A stretch of 64,000 nt of DNA, taken from the NCBI GenBank assembly GCA_021785125.1, contig JAJYGF010000015.1:17482-81481 (forward strand), read 5' to 3'. The position numbers and the translations under genes are program-made. Of the stretch, positions 3,792 to 50,245 are shown in pieces (within the stretch, counting starts at the first letter, position 1; the number at the start of each line of letters is the position of its first letter). Source of the DNA: a bacterium (GTDB taxonomy: Bacteria; Patescibacteriota; Minisyncoccia; Moranbacterales; UBA2206). The notes under the pieces are model-generated. The model did not search any database. It worked only from the letters and a program-made list of their open reading frames with translations, and was not told where the DNA came from.

Positions 3792-4641
3792 GGAACTGCA
3801 TAGTCTTAGGCTGGTGGTCATATCCTATCTGGTGGTTTTTGTCCTGAAGATTTCCGCATATTTCGCGACGGGCGTGATGGTCATCCTGGCGGAATCATTG
3901 CACACCTTGAGCGATATTTTCATTTCCGCCTTTCTTCTGATCGCACTGATCTGGTCCAGGCGAAAGGCGGATGAGAATTATATGTTCGGCTATGGCCGTG
4001 CTCAAAATATCGCAGCCTTGGTGGCGGCGATCCTATTCATCTCCTTTACCGGATTTGAATTATATAGAGAAGCCATTTCGCATCTATTTAATCCGAGCGT
4101 GGCTAATAGTTACCAAAATCTGAGTTGGGCAATCCTGATCATTCTGATTTCTATGATTATTTCGGCCGTGCCGATGCTATCACTCATCAGGCACGGGCGG
4201 AAAGGTGCGGCCGCCAAGGCTCAACTTTCCGAACTTTTCAATGATCAGCTCGGACTTATCGCGGCTTTGGCCGGCACGGTTTTCATCGCGATGGGCAAAC
4301 CGATCGCGGATTCGATCGCGACCATGATTGTGGCGACTATGATCGTTGTGAACGGCATAAGGTTGTTCATCGAAAATTCGCGGTTACTTTTGGGAAAATC
4401 ACCGGGTAACAAATTTGCCAGGCACTTGGAAGAGCTGGCATTGTCGGTGCGGGGAGTTGTCGGTTTTCATGATTTGAAAGCGGAATACATCGGACCGGAT
4501 GCGATCCATGCCGGCTTCCATATCGAAGTAGAAAAAAATCTTTCCGTCCAAGACGCGCACACGATTTGCAAAAAAGTTGAAGAAAAGGTTTATGAATGCA
4601 CGCTTTGCAAATCTTGCACGATCCACGTGGATCCTAAATAA
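3766..4641 (+). CDS. cation diffusion facilitator (CDF) family metal efflux transporter
   Basis: 291 aa; LAESLHTLSD, 6 TM, cytoplasmic C-terminal domain typical of CzcD/FieF family. Confidence 0.8.
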   Translation: MELELAKNKELHSLRLVVISYLVVFVLKISAYFATGVMVILAESLHTLSDIFISAFLLIALIWSRRKADENYMFGYGRAQNIAALVAAILFISFTGFELYREAISHLFNPSVANSYQNLSWAILIILISMIISAVPMLSLIRHGRKGAAAKAQLSELFNDQLGLIAALAGTVFIAMGKPIADSIATMIVATMIVVNGIRLFIENSRLLLGKSPGNKFARHLEELALSVRGVVGFHDLKAEYIGPDAIHAGFHIEVEKNLSVQDAHTICKKVEEKVYECTLCKSCTIHVDPK

Positions 4642-7753: not shown

Positions 7754-7868
7754 AATTTTTAATTTTGTAATTTTTAATTTTTAAATAAATCTTAATTTTT
7801 AATGTTTAAAATTGGCATTAGAAATTATTTATAAAATTGAAAAATTAAGAATTAAAAATTGATCTGCT

Positions 7869-8844: not shown

Positions 8845-9252
8845 ATGTCGCGAGTTTTGATTTTAAACAAATCCGTGGCCGGCGATGCCGGCAATCGGAT
8901 ACGTCGAAGATCTGCAATTTCAGGCAGCCGATTTTCATTCGGAAAGGTATCCGCTTCATCCGGCAGTGCGCGGATAAATTTGGTTTCGCTGACTTTCACG
9001 CTGATTGTCGGCATGGTAGTCGGCTCCGGTTTTTATTTGTATCAAGTAAACGACATCGCGACCAAAAATTACGAAATTCGCGATATTGAAAATAAGATTC
9101 ACGATCTTAATAAAGAGAGCAAAAAAATGGAAATTCAGGAAGTTGGGCTACAATCCATGGACAACATAGAAAAGGCGTCGCAAAGCTTGAACTTGGTAAG
9201 TTCAACCGATATTTCGTATGTCCAAGTGAATGGACCGATGGCGATGAGATAG
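8845..9252 (+). CDS. ftsL: FtsL-like cell division protein (bitopic, coiled coil)
   Basis: position between rsmH and ftsI; single TM LVSLTFTLIVGMVVGSGFYLY followed by coiled-coil. Confidence 0.5.
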   Translation: MSRVLILNKSVAGDAGNRIRRRSAISGSRFSFGKVSASSGSARINLVSLTFTLIVGMVVGSGFYLYQVNDIATKNYEIRDIENKIHDLNKESKKMEIQEVGLQSMDNIEKASQSLNLVSSTDISYVQVNGPMAMR

Positions 9253-9265
9253 TTTCTTAATATCT

Positions 9266-9309
9266 TTGCTAAGGCTAAACCTTAGCGCGCTAAGGTTTAG
9301 CCTTAGCAA
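9266..9309. repeat. 44-bp perfect palindrome TTGCTAAGGCTAAACCTTAGCG|CGCTAAGGTTTAGCCTTAGCAA
   Basis: read directly; each arm is itself a near-palindrome (CTAAGG..CCTTAG). Confidence 0.85.
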
Positions 9310-9323
9310 ATTTAGTTATCTTA

Positions 9324-11204
9324 ATGCCAGCAGTTATAAAAAAACATCTGAAAGAAATTAAGGATTGGAGAATACGCGTTCTGTTTTTTTTATTTTTGGT
9401 GATCGTGCTGGCGGTTGTATCGCGTCTTTTCGTCCTGCAAGTTTCAGAACATGATGAATATCGCGCTCTGGCGTATGGAGAGCATTCTTTTTTTCAAAAT
9501 TTGATACCCAAACGCGGCGAGATATATATGCAAGACAAAGACGGCCCGTATCTGGTAGCGGTAAATCGAGATACCCAGATGGTTTACGCGGTGCCTAAAG
9601 AGGTGACGGATGCTGATGCTGACGCGCTGGCCTTGGCACCGGTTTTGCAGATGGATGCCAATGATCTGAAGGTGAAATTATCCAAGCCCGATGACATGTA
9701 TGAACCACTCGAGCATCGCTTGAGCGATGATCAAATCGGTCGGATAAAAAATCTGAATTTAAAAGGCATTCATCTGGTGGACGAATCATATCGATATTAT
9801 CCCTCGAACGAATTGGGCTCCAATTTGTTGGGATTTGTTGGTTGGAAGGGCAATACGTTGGAAGGGCGCTACGGATTCGAAGCTTATTACGATTCGAAAT
9901 TAAGCGGTCAAGCCGGAACGGTATTTGGTCAGCGTGATGCGGCGGGAAAATTGCTGGATATGGGCGGCAAACAAGATATCACTCAAGCCAAAGACGGAGA
10001 TTCGTTTATTTTGTCCGTGGATCACATCGTTCAGTATCAGGCCGAAAAGATCCTTAAAAACGCGATTAGCAAGTACGCGGCTGAAAGCGGAAATATAACT
10101 GTGATGGATCCGAATACCGGAAAAATCCTGGCGATGGCCAGTTACCCGACGTTCGATCCGAATAACTATTCAAAAGTGTCGGATATAAGCGTATTTCGCA
10201 ACCAGCCGGTAAATGAGACGTATGAGCCCGGCAGCGTTTTTAAGGCCATAACAATGGCGGCGGGATTGGATGAAGGCAAAATCACGCCTGATTCGACTTA
10301 TATAGACACCGGCGAGGTTAAAGATGCTGGCTATACTATCCATAATGCTTTGTTGAAAGCCTATGGATTGCAGACGATGACCAATGTTTTGGAGAAATCT
10401 TTGAATACCGGAGTGATCCACGTTGAACAGCTGATCGGCAATAAAAATTTTGCCGATTATGTCAGAAGATTCGGTTTTGGCCAGCCGACCGGCATAGATC
10501 TCATGGGGGAAGCGCCCGGCAATATCGGAAATCTGAATAATTTGAACAGCGACATCCAATTTTATACGGCTGCGTTCGGACAAGGCATTACGGTTACGCC
10601 GATTCAGCTAGCTGCGGCGTATAGCGCTATTGCTAACGGTGGAACCTTGATGAAGCCGGAAATGGTTGATAAAATCAAGCATCCTGACGGTACGGAAGAA
10701 TCAGTCGAGCCTGAAATTATCCGGCGCGTCATTTCGCAACAATCCGCGGCTGAAGACGCCCAGATGTTGCACAGCGTTGTGGTAAACGGAGAAGGCAAAC
10801 AAGCAGGCGTGCCGGGCTATCTGGTGGCGGGAAAAACTGGAACGGCGCAGGTGGCCAGCGCCGATTCGCGCGGTTACTCGCAAAATCAAACGATCGGTTC
10901 TTTTGCCGGTTTTGCTCCATTGAATAATCCTAAGTTCACAATGGTGGTAAGTTTGACAGATCCCAAGAATGTGGTGTGGGCGGAATCGAGCGCCGCTCCC
11001 GTCTTTGGAGAAATGATGAAATTTTTGCTAGACTATTATGACGTAGGACCGACGGAAGCTTATACGCAAAAAGACATGGATGTTTTTAATCAGAATCACG
11101 ATCTGGCGCAATATCAGTCGACCGGCCAGAATCTGGACGTGACTGCCGGCAGCACCTCGGCATCGGCTTTAAATTCCGCCGGCAACAGCGGACAAAATCA
11201 ATGA
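9324..11204 (+). CDS. ftsI: peptidoglycan D,D-transpeptidase FtsI / class B penicillin-binding protein
   Basis: 626 aa; N-terminal TM, SVFK (SxxK), SLN, KTGT motifs. Confidence 0.85.
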   Translation: MPAVIKKHLKEIKDWRIRVLFFLFLVIVLAVVSRLFVLQVSEHDEYRALAYGEHSFFQNLIPKRGEIYMQDKDGPYLVAVNRDTQMVYAVPKEVTDADADALALAPVLQMDANDLKVKLSKPDDMYEPLEHRLSDDQIGRIKNLNLKGIHLVDESYRYYPSNELGSNLLGFVGWKGNTLEGRYGFEAYYDSKLSGQAGTVFGQRDAAGKLLDMGGKQDITQAKDGDSFILSVDHIVQYQAEKILKNAISKYAAESGNITVMDPNTGKILAMASYPTFDPNNYSKVSDISVFRNQPVNETYEPGSVFKAITMAAGLDEGKITPDSTYIDTGEVKDAGYTIHNALLKAYGLQTMTNVLEKSLNTGVIHVEQLIGNKNFADYVRRFGFGQPTGIDLMGEAPGNIGNLNNLNSDIQFYTAAFGQGITVTPIQLAAAYSAIANGGTLMKPEMVDKIKHPDGTEESVEPEIIRRVISQQSAAEDAQMLHSVVVNGEGKQAGVPGYLVAGKTGTAQVASADSRGYSQNQTIGSFAGFAPLNNPKFTMVVSLTDPKNVVWAESSAAPVFGEMMKFLLDYYDVGPTEAYTQKDMDVFNQNHDLAQYQSTGQNLDVTAGSTSASALNSAGNSGQNQ

Positions 11205-18883: not shown

Positions 18884-20008
18884 ATGAAATCGATTGCATT
18901 ATCCAAAAAAATCGGCGGGAAGATTGAAGTCAAATCCAAGAAGAAATTAACCAAGCAGAATCTGCCGATTTTGTACACACCGGGCGTGGCTTCGGTTTGC
19001 AAGGAAATCGCCAAGGACAAAAAACTTTCTTTTAAATACACGATCCGAAAAAATTCCGTAGCGGTGATTTCCGACGGTTCGGCCGTTTTGGGTCTGGGGA
19101 ACATCGGACCGGAAGCCGGACTGCCGGTCATGGAAGGCAAAGCCTTGCTTTTTAAAGAACTGACCGGCGTGGATGCTTTTCCGATCGTTCTGGATACGCA
19201 GGACACGGAAGAAATCATCAAAACGGTCAAATATCTGGCACCGACTTTTGGCGGGATCAATCTGGAGGATATCAGCGCGCCGCGTTGCTTTGAAATCGAA
19301 GAAAGATTGAAAAAAGAATTGGATATCCCGGTCTTTCATGATGACCAGCACGGCACGGCCATCGTGGTTCTGGCTGGGCTCATCAATGCTCTGAAGGTCG
19401 TTAAAAAAGACATCAAGAAGATCAAAATCGTCATTTCCGGTTCGGGAGCGGCAGGCGTGGCGATTGCGAAATTGCTTTTGAAATATGGTGCGAAGCATAT
19501 CGTGATGGTCGATAGCCAAGGCATAATTTTCAAGGAAAGGTCTGCCGGCATGAATAGTTCCAAGATGGAGATCGCCGACATCACCAATCCGCACAATCTG
19601 AAAGGGACGGTCGAAGACGCCTTGGATCACGCGGATGTCTTCATCGGAGTCTCGGCGCCGAATATTCTGAGGCATGTGCATATCAGCAAGATGCGGCAAG
19701 ATGCGATCGTGTTCGCGATGTCGAATCCCGTGCCGGAAATTATGCCGGAAGAAGCGAAGAAGGGCGGAGCCAGGATCGTGGCGACCGGCAGATCGGATTA
19801 TGCCAACCAGTTGAATAATGTTCTGGCTTTTCCGGGAATCTTCCGCGGAGCTCTGGATAACGGCGTGAAAAAAATTACGGATGAGCACAAGTTGAAAGTC
19901 GCGAAGGCTATTTCCGGTTTGATAAAAAATCCGACTGCTGATAAAATAATACCAAGCGCGCTTGATCCGCGAGTGGCCAAGGCCGTTTCCAAAGTATTTA
20001 AAAAATAA
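18884..20008 (+). CDS. NAD(P)-dependent malic enzyme (short form)
   Basis: YTPGVA, FHDDQHGTA, GSGAAGVA, NQLNNVLAFPG motifs; 374 aa. Confidence 0.85.
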   Translation: MKSIALSKKIGGKIEVKSKKKLTKQNLPILYTPGVASVCKEIAKDKKLSFKYTIRKNSVAVISDGSAVLGLGNIGPEAGLPVMEGKALLFKELTGVDAFPIVLDTQDTEEIIKTVKYLAPTFGGINLEDISAPRCFEIEERLKKELDIPVFHDDQHGTAIVVLAGLINALKVVKKDIKKIKIVISGSGAAGVAIAKLLLKYGAKHIVMVDSQGIIFKERSAGMNSSKMEIADITNPHNLKGTVEDALDHADVFIGVSAPNILRHVHISKMRQDAIVFAMSNPVPEIMPEEAKKGGARIVATGRSDYANQLNNVLAFPGIFRGALDNGVKKITDEHKLKVAKAISGLIKNPTADKIIPSALDPRVAKAVSKVFKK

Positions 20009-20015
20009 AAATGAA

Positions 20016-20144
20016 CCCCGCACTAACTTTCTGATCTTGATTGCTTTGGTGTAATAATTATTTTTTTGCGGGAAAAAATAAATATAAACATTAATGTGCT
20101 TTCTTTATTGCTGCGTGCGGCAATATCAGAAAGTTAGTGCGGGG
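20016..20144. repeat. 20-bp perfect inverted repeats (CCCCGCACTAACTTTCTGAT 20016-20035 / ATCAGAAAGTTAGTGCGGGG 20125-20144) flanking an 89-bp AT-rich segment
   Basis: read directly; second arm ends on the GTG start of yjbQ. Confidence 0.85.
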
Positions 20145-20584
20145 TGAAAATACATAAAAAAACCATTGAAATAAAAAGTTCTAGTCAGATCGAGTTTATA
20201 GATATTACGGATCGCGTTGAAGAGGTGGTGGATGATTCCGGAGTGAGAGAGGGGCAAGTCCTGGTCTATTCTCCGCACACTTCGGCCAGCATAGTCATAA
20301 ATCATAATGAAGCGATGCTGCTTCAGGATTTCATGCGGGTCCTGTACAGACTGGTTCCGATCAGCGACAGGTATTCACATGATATTTTTGAATTGAACCG
20401 GTCAAATTCTTCCGATGGGAGGAGTAATGGCCATTCGCATTGCAAGAGCATGCTTCTGGGCGTCAGCCAAACTGTCCCGATTGAAAAAGGCAAGATGTTG
20501 CTGACGGAGAAGCAGAACATATTTTTGGCGGAAATGGATGGTTCCCGCACGAGAGATATAATTATACAAGTAATCGGATTGTAA
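20144..20584 (+). CDS. YjbQ/UPF0047 family (secondary thiamine-phosphate synthase-like) protein
   Basis: VLVYSPHTSASIVINHNE...LQDFMRVLYRLVP motif; GTG start. Confidence 0.7.
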   Translation: MKIHKKTIEIKSSSQIEFIDITDRVEEVVDDSGVREGQVLVYSPHTSASIVINHNEAMLLQDFMRVLYRLVPISDRYSHDIFELNRSNSSDGRSNGHSHCKSMLLGVSQTVPIEKGKMLLTEKQNIFLAEMDGSRTRDIIIQVIGL

Positions 20585-23449: not shown

Positions 23450-24694
23450 ATGGATCAAAACAATTTCATGGGCATATTGGGAAGCTTCGCGCAGCCGTTC
23501 TATCAGGTTTGGTGGATGGTTATGCCGGTGCTTCTTTTTTATTTGTTCGCGTTTCTTTGGGACGACTATGTCAAGGGCGAATGGAGCGGCAAGATGGAAT
23601 GGACGATGATTGAGATCATTCCGCCCAAAGATCTGGAAAAGGGGCCGAAATTGATGGAATCGATATACCAGGGATTATGCGGAGTCGTCGTCAGCTACAA
23701 CGCGTTCGATGAATATGTCATGGGAATGTTCACGGACAAGTTCAGTTTCGAACTGGTCGGTTTGGGCGGAGAGGTGCATTTTTATGTGCGTGTCCAGAAA
23801 AAATTTAGAAATTTGCTGGAAGCGCAAATATACGCTCAATACCCGGATGCCGAAATTTTGGAAGTGGACGACTATGTCAACAATTTTCCCCGCGTTGTGC
23901 CGAATAGCGGTTGGAATTTATGGGGTTCTGACATGGTTTTGATTAAGCCGGACGCGTATCCATTGAGGACGTACGACAAGTTCGAAGAAGACATCACTGG
24001 CACCATGATCGATCCTATCGCTGGATTTGTGGAGCTTTTCGCTTCGACACCGCCAGGCCAGAATATGTGGCTGCAGATCATAGTTCAGCCGCTGGAAGAA
24101 GTCTGGAGGAAAAAATCTGGCGCGGAAAAAGAAATTCAGAAGCTGGCCGGCCGGGCGAAAGAATCCAGGGGGCTGTGGTCGGACGTGACGGATGTGTTTA
24201 CCAATCTCTTTAAAGCGCTTTGGCAGCCGGTGGAATTTCCATCGACCAAGAAAGAAGAGCAGCCATTGGAATTCAGATTGACGCCTGTAGAAAAAGACGT
24301 TCTCAAGGCAGTGGAAGAAAATCTCGGCAAGAACCAGTATAAGATAAAGATGAGGTTTATCTATGTAGGCAAGCGTGAAGGTTTCGATATGGGCTACGTG
24401 ACCGGATTTTTCGGCGTCACCCGGCAGTTCAATGATTTGAATCTCAATGGAATCAAGCCAGATGATTCCAAGACGACCGCGCATTTCGTGGCGATAGATA
24501 CGCGCCTTGACACGATGAAGCGCCGCATATATGAACGCTATCGCAAAAGAAATACGGATGGCAAAACCTTTGTTTTTTCGACTTCCGAACTGGCTACCAT
24601 CTATCATTTCCCGGATATGGCAGTCCGTACGCCGGCGTTGTCAAGAGTGGAATCCAAGCGGGGAACGGCGCCATCCAATCTGCCCACCGCGTAA
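23450..24694 (+). CDS. hypothetical N-terminally membrane-anchored protein; partner of downstream coupling-ATPase
   Basis: 414 aa; one N-terminal TM (FYQVWWMVMPVLLFYLFAFLW); no recognisable catalytic motifs. Confidence 0.5.
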   Translation: MDQNNFMGILGSFAQPFYQVWWMVMPVLLFYLFAFLWDDYVKGEWSGKMEWTMIEIIPPKDLEKGPKLMESIYQGLCGVVVSYNAFDEYVMGMFTDKFSFELVGLGGEVHFYVRVQKKFRNLLEAQIYAQYPDAEILEVDDYVNNFPRVVPNSGWNLWGSDMVLIKPDAYPLRTYDKFEEDITGTMIDPIAGFVELFASTPPGQNMWLQIIVQPLEEVWRKKSGAEKEIQKLAGRAKESRGLWSDVTDVFTNLFKALWQPVEFPSTKKEEQPLEFRLTPVEKDVLKAVEENLGKNQYKIKMRFIYVGKREGFDMGYVTGFFGVTRQFNDLNLNGIKPDDSKTTAHFVAIDTRLDTMKRRIYERYRKRNTDGKTFVFSTSELATIYHFPDMAVRTPALSRVESKRGTAPSNLPTA

Positions 24695-24696
24695 TA

Positions 24697-24725
24697 TTGA
24701 AAATTATCGATTTTTTCAATATAAT
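24697..24725 (+). promoter_or_regulatory. sigma70-like promoter TTGAAA-17-TATAAT
   Basis: TTGAAA 24697-24702, TATAAT 24720-24725, flanked by TTGAAAA/TTTTCAA inverted repeat. Confidence 0.5.
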
Positions 24726-24776
24726 TAGGAATCTAATATGTCATAGCTGAAAGCTCAAGCTGTCGGCTGATCAAAA

Positions 24777-26654
24777 ATGTCGGAAATAAATTTTTTTGCA
24801 AAAACCAATTTCAGGAATAAGGAGCAGATTTTTGGCATCAAGCGCGATGATCGGCGCCGCCATATGTATATCATCGGAAAGACCGGCATGGGAAAGTCCA
24901 ATTTGCTGGAAAATATGGCCATCCAGGATATCCGCAACGGCGAAGGTGTTTGCGTGGTCGATCCGCATGGGGAATTCGCGGAAAAAATGCTGAAAGCCGT
25001 GCCAGCCAGCCGCGTCAATGATGTCATCTATTTCAATCCGGCGGATGCGGATTTTCCGATCGCTTTCAACATTCTGGAATCAGTCGAAGAAGACAAAAAA
25101 AATCTGGTGGCTTCCGGTATGATGGGCGTGTTCAAGAAAATTTGGCCGGACGTATGGAGTCCGAGAATGGAATACATCTTGAACAATACCATTCTGGCGC
25201 TTTTGGATTATCCCGGTTCGACCATGCTTGGTGTGAATCGCATGATGGCCGATTCGGCATATCGCAAAAGGATCTATCCGAAAATCAAGGATCCAGTGGT
25301 TAAGTCGTTCTGGATTAATGAATTCGACAAATGGGATGACAAATTCAGAAAAGAGGCGGTGGCGGCTATCCAGAACAAAGTCGGACAGTTTTTGTCGTCT
25401 TCTGTCATCCGGCATATCGTCGGACAGCCTAAATCCACCATAGACATGCGTGAGATCATGGATAATCAGAAGATCCTGATTGTCAATCTGTCCAAAGGAA
25501 GGATTGGAGAAGATTCCATGCGCCTCTTGGGCGGTATGATCGTCACTAAAATCCAATTGGCGGCCATGGGGCGCGTCGCAATTTCCGAACTGGAAAGGAA
25601 AGATTTCTATCTGTATGTGGACGAGTTCCAAAATTTTGCCACGGAAGCGTTTGCCAATATCCTTTCCGAAGCCAGAAAGTATCGCTTAAATCTGATTTTA
25701 GCGCACCAATATATTAACCAGCTCATTTTTGACGGGAACACGACCGTACGCGATGCCGTTTTTGGCAACGTGGGGACCATAGTATCGTTCCGGGTCGGAG
25801 CGGAAGACGCGGAGCATCTGGAAAAGGAATTTGATCCGGTGTTTTTGATGAATGACATCGTCAATCTGTCCAAATATCACGTCTACCTGAAGCTTATGAT
25901 CGACGGTGTGGCGGGAGATGCGTTTTCGGCCACGACCTTGCCGCCGTTCAATTTGGATGAAACGGTGGACAATGAGGAAAAGATCATACGGGTGTCGCGA
26001 GAGAGATATAGCCGGCCGAAGGCGGAAGTGGAAGATCGGATCGCCCGCTGGAGCGGCATGGAAGTTTTCAAAGAGAATCCCTTGGGCGGCAAGGAAGAAT
26101 CGGATAATGCGGGCGAAAATTACGATTCGGAATTGTATGAAGAAAAACCTCATTTGTCGTCGAAAAGAAGCCGTTTGTCCGAAAATTACATCAAAAACGC
26201 GGTCAATAATTCAGCCATCCAGCTGTCGATGCCGGTGCGAGAAACTTATTCTGCCGAATGTGCCAGCTGTGGTGCCGGTATCACGGTGCCGTTTAAGCCG
26301 GATCCGAATCGGCCGACTTTTTGCCGTGAGTGTCTGAAGGATTATCAACGGTCAATGGCCAGGAAAAGATTGGTGGCTGAAAAGAGAGAGAGCGCTTCCG
26401 CTACTGTCCATGCTGACAATACGATCGTGAAAAAAGTTTTGCCGAAAGAGAACAACCAGCCGGAAGCTCAAGCCAAGAGAACTTCCGAACATGTCGTATA
26501 CGCGCCGCAGGACCGGCCGATGAGTCTGTCGCAGATGTCGCATATCGCGCCGAAAAAATTCAAGCCGCAACGGCCGAAGCCGAATGTGAATCTTGAAGAA
26601 GTCAGAGAGCTTCTGGATAAAACCAGGAAGCCGAAAGAAAATGGAGGACAATAA
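24777..26654 (+). CDS. type IV coupling protein-like ATPase (VirD4/TraG/TrwB family, FtsK-HerA superfamily) with C-terminal zinc ribbon and basic tail
   Basis: Walker A IIGKTGMGKS, Walker B YLYVDEFQNF, LILAHQYINQL (TraG-D_C-like), CASCG...CRECL zinc ribbon, K/R/P-rich C-terminus; 625 aa. Confidence 0.7.
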   Translation: MSEINFFAKTNFRNKEQIFGIKRDDRRRHMYIIGKTGMGKSNLLENMAIQDIRNGEGVCVVDPHGEFAEKMLKAVPASRVNDVIYFNPADADFPIAFNILESVEEDKKNLVASGMMGVFKKIWPDVWSPRMEYILNNTILALLDYPGSTMLGVNRMMADSAYRKRIYPKIKDPVVKSFWINEFDKWDDKFRKEAVAAIQNKVGQFLSSSVIRHIVGQPKSTIDMREIMDNQKILIVNLSKGRIGEDSMRLLGGMIVTKIQLAAMGRVAISELERKDFYLYVDEFQNFATEAFANILSEARKYRLNLILAHQYINQLIFDGNTTVRDAVFGNVGTIVSFRVGAEDAEHLEKEFDPVFLMNDIVNLSKYHVYLKLMIDGVAGDAFSATTLPPFNLDETVDNEEKIIRVSRERYSRPKAEVEDRIARWSGMEVFKENPLGGKEESDNAGENYDSELYEEKPHLSSKRSRLSENYIKNAVNNSAIQLSMPVRETYSAECASCGAGITVPFKPDPNRPTFCRECLKDYQRSMARKRLVAEKRESASATVHADNTIVKKVLPKENNQPEAQAKRTSEHVVYAPQDRPMSLSQMSHIAPKKFKPQRPKPNVNLEEVRELLDKTRKPKENGGQ

Positions 26655-41741: not shown

Positions 41742-41832
41742 AACCCCACACAATTGTGGGAATTAAGAATAATAAAGAAAGCCTATATCAGTTCAAGATT
41801 TAATTAGAGAGAATTGGTGTGGGGGTAAAACT

Positions 41833-45826: not shown

Positions 45827-45893
45827 CGATTAGAATTTTTAATTTCCAATTTTTAATTTTTAAATAATTTCTAATGTTTAAAAATTATAAAAT

Positions 45894-48350: not shown

Positions 48351-48488
48351 ATATTAAAATCCCCGAAGGGATTTTTCAAATTTTATAATTTTTTAATTTT
48401 GTAATTTTATAAATAAATCTAAATTTTCAATGATTAAACATTAGATATTTAGAAAATTATTTAAAAATTAAAAATTGGAAATTAAAAA

Positions 48489-48698
48489 TTAATTTTCCAG
48501 TATCCTGATATCTCCCTCCGGCGTCTCTTCAATTTGGTATCCGGCATCCAAGATGGCCTGTTTCAATTTTTCCATATCTTCATGGGAGATTTCGTGTCCG
48601 CTCGCGCTATGGTTATGTCCGCATCCACAGGCATGTTTTTCTGCGGTTTCATCTTCATTGTGATGGCAATGTCCGCAGCCGCAAGAATCGTGTGTCAT
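48489..48698 (-). CDS. 69-aa Cys/His-rich putative metal-binding micro-protein, translationally coupled to cysS
   Basis: [39 protein letters not shown]...; start codon overlaps cysS stop (shared coordinate 48698). Confidence 0.5.
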   Translation of the reverse strand: MTHDSCGCGHCHHNEDETAEKHACGCGHNHSASGHEISHEDMEKLKQAILDAGYQIEETPEGDIRILEN

Positions 48699-50158
48699 TA
48701 TTTTTTCCCACCACGTCGGGCGGGCTTGATTATATAATTATTATTTCTTGTATCTTCTATGATATAGCCCAATTTGTCAATCGCGTCGCGCAGCTCGTCC
48801 GATTTCCGGAAGTCCTTATTTTCTCGGGCGACCTTTCTTTCTTCGGCCAGAGCCTTGATTTCTTTCGGAATTTCAATGACTTCCAATTTTAATCCTAAAA
48901 TCCTGGCAAAAATTTCAAGCAGTTTTTTGGCTTTACCCGGATTGCCGAGCAGATTTTCATCCATCAGCTTGTTGGCGTCGCTTGCGAATTCAAAAACGAC
49001 AGACAGAGCTTTGGGCGTATTGAGATCGTCATCTATGGCTTTTTCGAAATCTTTCCTGTACTTGCCCGTTGTCATGTTGGAAAGTTTGTCGCTTCCGGTG
49101 ATTTTGTGGTCGAGCAATCGTGCATAAAAATTATTTAAAGCTGTCAGATTGGCTTCAGCTTGATCCATGGCGGTCCAGGTGAAATTCATCTGGCTGCGAT
49201 AATGGGCGGACAGGATTGCCATGCGCAGATCCATCGGGGAATAACCCTTTTCTTTAATATCGGACAAGGTATAGAAGTTACCTTTGGATTTCGACATCTT
49301 TTCGCCATCCGCCAAAAGATGTCGCGTGTGGATCCAGTAATTGACGAATTTGGCTCCGCTGTAGCATTCTGACTGGGCGATTTCCGCTTCATGGTGAGGA
49401 AATATGTTATCTTCGCCGCCGGTGTGGATATCGATCGTGTCGCCGAGGTATTGCATGCTCATGGCGGAACACTCGATGTGCCAGCCCGGATAACCCACGG
49501 ACCACGGCGAATCCCATTTCATGATGTGATTGGCGGGAGCTTTCAGCCATAAAGCGAAGTCCCAAGGATTTTTTTTGTCCGGATGCTCTTCCAATCGGGC
49601 GCCGACTTTCAAGTTTTCCAGCGTGTTGCCGGAAAGTTTTCCGTATTCCGGAAATTTGGTCACGTCAAAGAATACGTTGCCATTCTTTTCGTATGCATAA
49701 CCTTTTTCCAAAAGGCCTTGGATCAATTTGATCATTTCTTGGATGTGGGCGGAAGCGCGCGGAAAATAATTCGCCGGCAAAATATTCATCTCCTTTTCTG
49801 TCTCTTTGAAAATTCCTTCGTAAAAACGCGCGATTTCTTCCGGAGTCTTATGCTCCTTTTTGGCTTTTTTCTCGATTTTGTCTTCGCCGGTGTCGCCCTG
49901 ATCCAGATCGTCGTTGGTCAGGTGTCCGACGTCGGTGACGTTTTTGATCTGGCGGACTTCATAACCCAGATATTCCAGATAGCGGCGCAAGACGTCGGGC
50001 GTGACAAAAGTGCGGATGTTGCCGATATGGATGAAATCATAAACCGTCGGCCCGCAAGTGTACATGCTTGCTTTGCCCGGATTAATCGGAGCAAATTCTT
50101 CTTTGGTTTTGGAAAGGGTATTGTAGAGCTTAAGCATTATAGGATTTATAATTTTCAA
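48698..50158 (-). CDS. cysS: cysteine--tRNA ligase
   Basis: HIGN ([10 protein letters not shown]) and KMSKS motifs, zinc-binding Cys; 486 aa. Confidence 0.9.
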
Positions 50159-50245
50159 TTATTAATTTTTAAACAATTTCTAATTTAAAAATTTTATAAA
50201 TTATTAATTGTTTGAAAATTGAAAATTAATACTTGAAAATTTTAT

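Follow-up and report, generated by a model that had tools for sequence, protein, structure and literature searches.

A 129-bp non-autonomous, MITE-like transposable element with a 4-bp TGAA target-site duplication very probably lies in this Candidatus Moranbacteria chromosome, between the genes for an NAD(P)-malic enzyme and YjbQ. The features of this junction in the window (the whole 64-kb stretch of DNA that was analyzed) are listed below; L numbers denote the other loci used for comparison.

18884..20008, + strand: NAD(P)-malic enzyme gene, 374 aa, an open reading frame with its stop TAA at 20006-20008
20011..20034, + strand: small frame that opens on the likely relic of the ancestral yjbQ ATG (20011-20013), from its translation and the empty-site comparison
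20012..20015, no strand: TGAA, left copy of the target-site duplication, present as a single TGAA at the empty sites of L004, L006, L007, and L080
20016..20035, + strand: left terminal inverted repeat CCCCGCACTAACTTTCTGAT, an exact repeat found in 0/100 shuffles
20036..20124, + strand: interior, 89 bp, AT-rich, without an ORF, predicted to fold into two inner hairpins (A and B)
20125..20144, + strand: right terminal inverted repeat ATCAGAAAGTTAGTGCGGGG, the exact reverse complement of the left one; the new start codon begins with the final G of this arm
20145..20148, no strand: TGAA, right copy of the target-site duplication, whose TG supplies the second and third bases of the GTG start
20144..20584, + strand: yjbQ (PF01894), 146 aa, GTG start, from the ORF and the family match

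Across the junction the window reads ...AAAAAATAA AAATGAA CCCCGCACTAACTTTCTGAT (89 bp) ATCAGAAAGTTAGTGCGGGG TGAAAATACAT..., and both ends of the element are of the CCCCG/CGGGG type. The perfect 20-bp arms are exactly where the earlier note had placed them, and the second does overlap the yjbQ start as it said, G20144 being the first base of the GTG; the frame upstream is shut by an in-frame TAG (20135-20137). Pairing grows to 21 bp with A20015/T20145 and, if one mismatch is allowed, to 25 nt on the inner side. The arm occurs at only two places in the window, even at ≤3 mismatches, and shuffles are expected to yield 0.01 matches (two or more in 0/100 shuffles), which bears out the note's judgment that a chance origin is improbable. 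Of the further arm copies that it had proposed to look for, no exact one exists elsewhere in the window, and similar arms were found in an element of L031 (described below). The malic-enzyme orthologues in L002, L004, L005, and L010 carry Pfam malic/Malic_M annotations.

All three frames of the element run into stop codons close to its left end, and the only ORF is the relic frame, ATG AAC CCC GCA CTA ACT TTC TGA (MNPALTF*; eight codons including the stop), which enters the left arm. This frame was considered as a leader peptide and rejected, as it varies among carriers (MNPALTF*, MTPH*, and a 16-aa frame in L010). Rfam at the gathering threshold detected only tRNAs in the window, and the best permissive Rfam matches of the element were plant miRNA-precursor hairpins (27 bits vs a gathering score of 80).

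A direct repeat absent from the earlier note, TGAA, touches both arms from outside (20012-20015 and 20145-20148), which leads one to expect that yjbQ originally started with ATG and that 4 bp of target DNA were duplicated. When the element and one TGAA were removed, the sequence became ...TAAAAATGAAAATA..., with an ordinary ATG start. The in-silico excision product is TAA-AA-ATGAAAATACAT, i.e., the malic stop, two bases, and ATG AAA ATA CAT (M K I H), and the reconstructed empty site reads ...AAAAATAAAAATGAAAATACAT....

The same junction was gathered from ~70 homologous loci, in which malic enzyme, yjbQ, pcm, and yceG follow one another in conserved order and whose YjbQ homologues (75-100% identity) carry the label Candidatus Moranbacteria or Parcubacteria. 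Four of these, L004, L006, L007, and L080, have the empty site ATGAAAATA with a single TGAA. The malic TGA overlaps the yjbQ ATG (ATGA) in L004 (...AAAATGAAAATA...), and a plain spacer of 19-21 nt precedes the ATG in the other three. The element is carried by L001 and L002, which are the same strain as the window or a near-identical one (the L002 stem has one mismatch, GTGCGCGG), and by L003, with a 92% identical YjbQ. At all of the 60+ loci without a CCCCG-ended element yjbQ starts with ATG; the GTG start is confined to carriers.

From these alignments, the ancestral junction was ...TAA AA ATGAAAATA..., with the malic stop almost abutting or overlapping the yjbQ start, and the insertion point lies between ATGAA and AATA. 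The ATG at 20011-20013 is probably what is left of the ancestral start. The right TGAA, following the terminal G, gives GTGAAAATA, keeping a yjbQ start codon at the homologous position. Excision at the RNA level by a BHB/intron-like process, restoring AUGAAAAUA, was also considered and rejected, as the stem base does not have bulge-helix-bulge geometry.

Related elements were found at the same site and at others. At the identical position, L010 (YjbQ 83% identical) reads ATATGAA|CCCCGTTAGAGTTTTT...AAAAACTCTAACGGGG|TGAAAATA; its element is 101 bp long and different in sequence, and it has the CCCCG/CGGGG ends, the TGAA flanks, and the GTG start in common with the window element. The close relatives L078 and L079 are without this 101-bp element. 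On a neighbor-joining tree of YjbQ and PCMT the empty-site loci L004, L006, and L007 stand between L010 and the window/L003 clade, indicating two independent insertions at the yjbQ start. L045 and L065 have the 101-bp type as well, within the pcm start codon (...ATGAG|CCCCGTTAGAAATTTT...AAATTTCTAACGGGG|TGAGCAAA), with TGAG on both sides and a start that is now GTG (VSKLVN...). The remaining genomes have ATGAG(C/T)AA at the pcm start, which in several of them (such as L042 and L013) overlaps the yjbQ stop as ATGA. Upstream of groES, a 68-bp element (L031:1641-1708) has termini, CCCGCACTAACTT, that match the window arms over 13 nt; it is flanked by a 5-bp duplication, CTAAT, and L022 and L023, close relatives, have its exact empty site (GAGTGCTAAT|TACTTTG).

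By chance, 10 further bases common to two of 11 CCC...GGG repeat elements would be expected with a probability of ~5e-5, and the identities of all four flanks (4 nt in three cases, 5 nt in one) with ~9e-11. When 689 kb were scanned blindly for CCC...GGG inverted repeats abutted by a 4-nt direct repeat, seven came up vs 0-1 in shuffles, five of the seven being the CCCCG-type elements described here. The ends of the two types read CCCCGCACTAAC... and CCCCGTTAGA.... The interiors of the 129-bp and 101-bp types showed no detectable homology when compared (~42% identity in either orientation), and it is by their termini, duplication type, and target that the two would be kin.

Together, the small size without a transposase ORF, the perfect 20-bp terminal inverted repeats, and the target-site duplications that agree with empty sites (TGAA, and likewise TGAG at pcm and CTAAT in L031) are those of a MITE, and the third of the readings offered by the earlier note, a MITE-like insertion, is the one that these data favor. 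Related copies lie at other sites in other genomes, and one copy lies in the 64-kb window. No additional copies of any element type were detected by blastn-short in ~0.9 Mb of related Moranbacteria DNA. The exact arm of the 129-bp type had zero matches in collections of genomes, metagenomes, and viral contigs, that of the 101-bp type had zero in the viral contig collection, and, among plasmids and phages, blastn with the element gave just a short AT-rich chance match to Borreliella plasmids. By sequence, the element is assigned to no named family. An autonomous partner was sought as a pair of inverted repeats with these ends ≤3.5 kb apart in 0.9 Mb, and none was found aside from one ATPase case: the CCC...GGG search at L029:12237-13493 (also L062) had picked out a RarA/MgsA-like ATPase gene without a transposase, which was rejected as a transposon. 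On either side of that gene stands a small hairpin, CCCGAAACAAGTTCGGGATGACATAAAA, in 28-nt copies inverted relative to each other. Pfam detected no transposase or recombinase domain in the ten unannotated ORFs of the window that were tested.

The proposed route of insertion involves a transposase encoded elsewhere, which would make staggered cuts of 4-5 bp, and an element that would favor TGAR-like AT-rich targets. In a packed genome, only insertions restoring both the stop and the start would persist. TGAR occurs ~1,100 times in the window, and selection must therefore supply much of the filtering. The target is split at A|TGAA; the left copy saves the old ATG or, at ATGA overlaps (such as L045), the upstream TGA, and the right TGAR copy joined to the terminal G creates GTGAR, so that the upstream stop and the downstream start both survive. 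With operon spacers of only 0-12 nt in these genomes, this survival of stop and start explains why three independent insertions are exactly at start codons. Such insertion logic, in which the signals at ATGA junctions are restored, is apparently undescribed.

The other explanations for the inverted repeat fit these observations less well. It seems highly improbable that the 89-bp segment is an invertible promoter, flipped by a site-specific recombinase to turn yjbQ on and off, for all that 20-bp inverted repeats around a short AT-rich segment just upstream of a gene are its classic geometry. The interior had been called promoter-like in the earlier note, which had offered this reading too, and it does contain TTGATT (20037-20042) and TAATAAT (20052-20058), but these are only 9 nt apart, and a sigma-70 consensus scan of 20036-20124 gave no promoter-like site (CPR promoters may differ). 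Neither claim was supported. The interior has a single orientation in the window, L001, L002, and L003 (four assemblies from four samples), and even the L003 interior, ~26% diverged, aligns directly (70/95) and not as the reverse complement (49/108). No recombinase domain was found among the ORFs tested and the other ORFs of the window look housekeeping, while the TGAA duplication, the empty sites, and the related elements at unrelated genes would be unexpected for an inverton. It is hardly credible that the repeat is a chance palindrome or the transcription terminator of the malic-enzyme gene. A strong hairpin directly past a stop codon would suit a terminator, but GGGGTGAAAATACAT follows the stem on the + strand with no U-tract, a terminator scan of the element had no match, and the only T-rich run is on the - strand, where no gene converges. 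Chance did not reproduce the repeat in any of the shuffles, and neither version accounts for the TGAA duplication, for the empty sites, or for related copies at other loci.

Movement by another class of enzyme, with the element as a site or cassette of a tyrosine/serine recombinase or as a single-strand (IS200/IS605, REPIN, or attC-like) mobile unit rather than a DDE-type MITE, is very unlikely. The arms hold CACTAAC...GTTAGTG, which loosely resembles the core sites of integron attC (RYYYAAC/GTTRRRY), the insertions at the same sites (the yjbQ start twice, and the pcm start) suggest site selectivity, and a folded hairpin would suit single-strand mechanisms. Against this, each target has its own flanking repeat (TGAA, TGAG, CTAAT), as expected of a true target duplication, and Y1 transposases and REPINs make no target duplication. 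As an attC-like site the element was rejected separately, given a core match of 5/7 per side, a perfect stem without extrahelical bases, no cassette array, and no nearby integrase.

If the junction is transcribed from the malic-enzyme gene, the element RNA is predicted to be very stable, with a fold of -54.4 kcal/mol and a z of -9.8 (overall, MFE of -54 to -57 and z about -9). The predicted shape is a Y, with a long closing stem and two hairpins, and is common to L003, L010, L045, and L031; such a fold is typical of MITEs. The inner hairpins span ~20039-20103 (A) and ~20106-20125 (B; UUGCUGCG/UGCGGCAA), and in L003, where a G-U pair has become G-C, B is retained. Only 7 nt separate the malic stop from the stem base, and the stem finishes on the yjbQ start codon. 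In the empty-site relatives yjbQ likewise has no Shine-Dalgarno sequence, which makes coupling plausible. In a read-through mRNA the arms would pair into a 19-20 bp stem that closes the Y and buries the GTG, bringing the malic stop beside the yjbQ start. Expression of yjbQ would then rely either on ribosomes that finish at the malic stop and unwind the foot of the stem, making the start accessible, or on RNase III-type cleavage within the stem, which would part the two messages and expose the yjbQ start. No RNase III gene was found in the related sequence scanned, which is uninformative given the partial sampling.

The earlier note's long-range RNA stem over the start stands as a structure that would form on read-through (-54 to -57 kcal/mol), and we take it for a side effect of the terminal inverted repeats and not for a regulator that evolved as such. 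We read the stem as something that must affect yjbQ translation, as a consequence of the insertion and not as its origin; some later co-option as a regulator is conceivable.

Orthologous copies exceed the conservation expected from neutral decay. Between the window and L003, fourfold divergence is 35% in the malic-enzyme gene, 49% in yjbQ, and 69% in pcm, and the arms are identical at 39/40 positions (P ~7e-7; interior 70/95). Between L045 and L065, fourfold divergence is 34-35% and the element is identical at 100/101 positions (P ~2e-17), with differences restarting 10-14 nt outside its borders. Both carrier pairs are sister lineages on the neighbor-joining tree. Either the copies were acquired recently or repeatedly from a shared, near-identical source, which would imply horizontal spread and a strong site preference, or one old insertion has been under selection.

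The latter is what would be expected of a co-opted cis-acting RNA module whose structure is held by host selection, an account that is compatible with a MITE origin and that we consider rather unlikely. The module could be a bridge that joins the malic stop to the yjbQ start, so that coupling survives a 133-nt insertion, or a site of RNase III-type processing by which the two messages become uncoupled. The stability of the fold and the placement of the stem (its base 7 nt past the stop, its end on the start) speak for it, as do the frozen arms and the 101-bp element against their fourfold divergence. That the carriers in each pair are sister lineages suits a single old insertion that was then preserved, and RNase III cuts the inverted repeats of co-transcribed Correia elements in Neisseria (PMC10969869). 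On the other side, the covariation check proposed in the earlier note returned a stable fold and orthologous copies with identity only and no compensatory changes, which does not separate pairing constraint from recency. Selection on the stem leaves unexplained that the loops and the AT-rich interior of L045/L065 are conserved too, the near-identical strain L002 already has a stem mismatch, and most relatives manage without an element or with unrelated junction hairpins.

A broader and more doubtful proposal combines the two alternatives, in that an active family of CCCCG-ended elements would have spread horizontally in Moranbacteria, homed to A|TGAR junctions, and then been selected as an RNA bridge or processing hairpin. 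If true, homing with an RNA role would make the element a mobile, self-compensating intergenic module and not junk, and would account for the 99% identical copies at 34% synonymous divergence, the frozen arms beside diverging flanks, and the three independent start-codon insertions.

Other repeats were observed in these genomes. At the malic-yjbQ junction of other Moranbacteria there are 90-120 nt hairpins of heptamer-like units (TACGAAT/ATTCGTA, CATG-rich, TACAAAAATAC), and the sequence type of the hairpin changes even among close relatives (L078, L079, L005, L008, L013). Within the window, a separate AT-rich hairpin repeat family (AATTTTTAATTTTGTAATTTTTAA...) is found in at least four spacers (7754-7860, 45834-45883, 48385-48493, and 50147-50244), and a perfect 46-bp spacerless palindrome, TTTGCTAAGGCTAAACCTTAGCG|CGCTAAGGTTTAGCCTTAGCAAA (9265-9310), lies between an ftsL-like ORF (ending at 9252) and an ftsI-like ORF (starting at 9324). 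The rplQ-rplM spacer is filled by an 84-nt imperfect inverted repeat, CCCCACACAATTG...GAATTGGTGTGGGGG (41743-41826), with TAAAA on both flanks; the GGGGGT of its right arm is Shine-Dalgarno-like, 6 nt before the rplM ATG, and could be sequestered by the left arm. Arms similar to those of this repeat (CCCCCAC(A)CCAATTC) occur at L036:1923-2007, L022:775-856, L017:677-821, and L020:1446-1556. Repeats with arms like CCCCCACACCAATTC may tentatively form a superfamily with the window element; most members of that arm group are without clean duplications. The L036 copy (also in L068), palindromic ACCCCCACACCAATTC...GATTGGTGTGGGGGT, is an in-frame 27-aa insertion of RPE-like selfish DNA in MurF that neither the 77%-identical L038 nor the window MurF has, and is tentatively a looser Moranbacteria relative of the window element.

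The 68-bp element of L031 sits directly 3' of a CIRCE-type operator, TTAGCAGTCGGATGATGCGAGTGCTAA, in the groES leader (L031:1600-1720), where it could change HrcA-controlled expression. The groES-groEL spacer holds an inverted-repeat element of ~120 nt, ATCCCGCACCAATTCC...GAATTGGTGCAGGGAT (L022:639-760), which is 98-100% identical in L022, L031, L023, and L025 and missing in L029. Its right part and the next ~45 nt, up to ATGGCAAA, recur upstream of mnmA (L065:7780-7935). L022 has a second nested element downstream (775-856), and in L025 there is a 20-nt GC palindrome within the groES-groEL element.

A tRNA within a tRNA was found at L024:4177-4362 (MFSE01000023.1, Moranbacteria RIFOXYA12_FULL_35_19; the same in L060). 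A complete tRNA-Glu(CTC) (4231-4304; ARAGORN; Rfam 56.8 bits) interrupts another tRNA-like cloverleaf in its anticodon loop, and the two are linked by a 14-bp helix, ACCCCTGCACTAATTT/AAAATTGGTGCGGGGC, whose sequence resembles the arms of the window element. The whole folds at -81.3 kcal/mol (z -5.3), and the L057 orthologue is an ordinary tRNA-Glu(CTC) without interruption. A palindromic element with a replacement tRNA-Glu seems to have been inserted into the resident tRNA-Glu gene. At 23450-26654 of the window, a 414-aa ORF, which has no Pfam match there and a counterpart in L002 annotated as DUF8128, is followed by the gene of a coupling ATPase (625 aa, TrwB/VirD4/HerA-like, with a zinc finger; PF10412, PF01935); the pair may form a module for DNA translocation in the conserved neighborhood of yjbQ.

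That the ultra-small CPR genomes of Moranbacteria host MITE-like mobile DNA is unreported in the literature searched, a full-text search of which returned no report on MITEs or palindromic elements in CPR/Patescibacteria. The window element offers a sequence-level example of a transposon that enters a start codon without killing the gene, one concrete route to ATG to GTG start-codon turnover, and a route by which long structured spacers could appear suddenly in tightly coupled operons. For annotation, such elements would explain odd GTG starts and unexplained gaps of 100-130 nt in CPR operons. The high conservation of the orthologous copies makes co-option of MITEs as elements of RNA processing or translation coupling a tractable test.

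Like the prokaryotic MITEs (PMC10969869), the window element is small and non-coding, with perfect terminal inverted repeats, a short target-site duplication, an AT-rich interior, a stable hairpin if transcribed, and presence/absence among close relatives; unlike them, it has a CPR bacterium as its host and was seen as a single copy in 64 kb. It shares with the Rickettsia palindromic elements (RPE) a similar size and tolerance in streamlined genomes where gene function survives, but it is intergenic with stops in all frames, and regenerates stop and start instead of being translated. REPINs (RAYT) also combine two conserved inverted arms with a variable spacer into a long intergenic hairpin. 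They have a conserved GTAG-type head and are not known to make a target duplication, whereas the duplicated flank of the window family varies with the target, which sets it apart from REP/REPIN elements.

Elements of the IS1380 family have CC ends and duplications of 4-5 bp, and the CCCCG ends and the TGAA, TGAG, and CTAAT duplications found here are of this IS1380/piggyBac type. The piggyBac transposons have 5'-CCC termini and a 4-bp duplication, with IS1380 as their prokaryotic outgroup (PMC10813416). The piggyBac target is TTAA and that of the window family TGAR, and no transposase was seen, so that this resemblance, the closest structural signature, is a lead only. Correia elements (CREE/nemis) of Neisseria are alike in size (~100-155 bp), in their long inverted repeats, and in being gene-adjacent and co-transcribed. 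They differ in a TA duplication and unrelated 26-bp repeats, as against the TGAA/TGAG duplication and CCCCG ends of the window family, and in having hundreds of copies, in Neisseria only. Their paired repeats are RNase III substrates that alter mRNA fate (PMC10969869), and Correia elements are the best model, and the closest functional analogue, for the possible role of the window stem.
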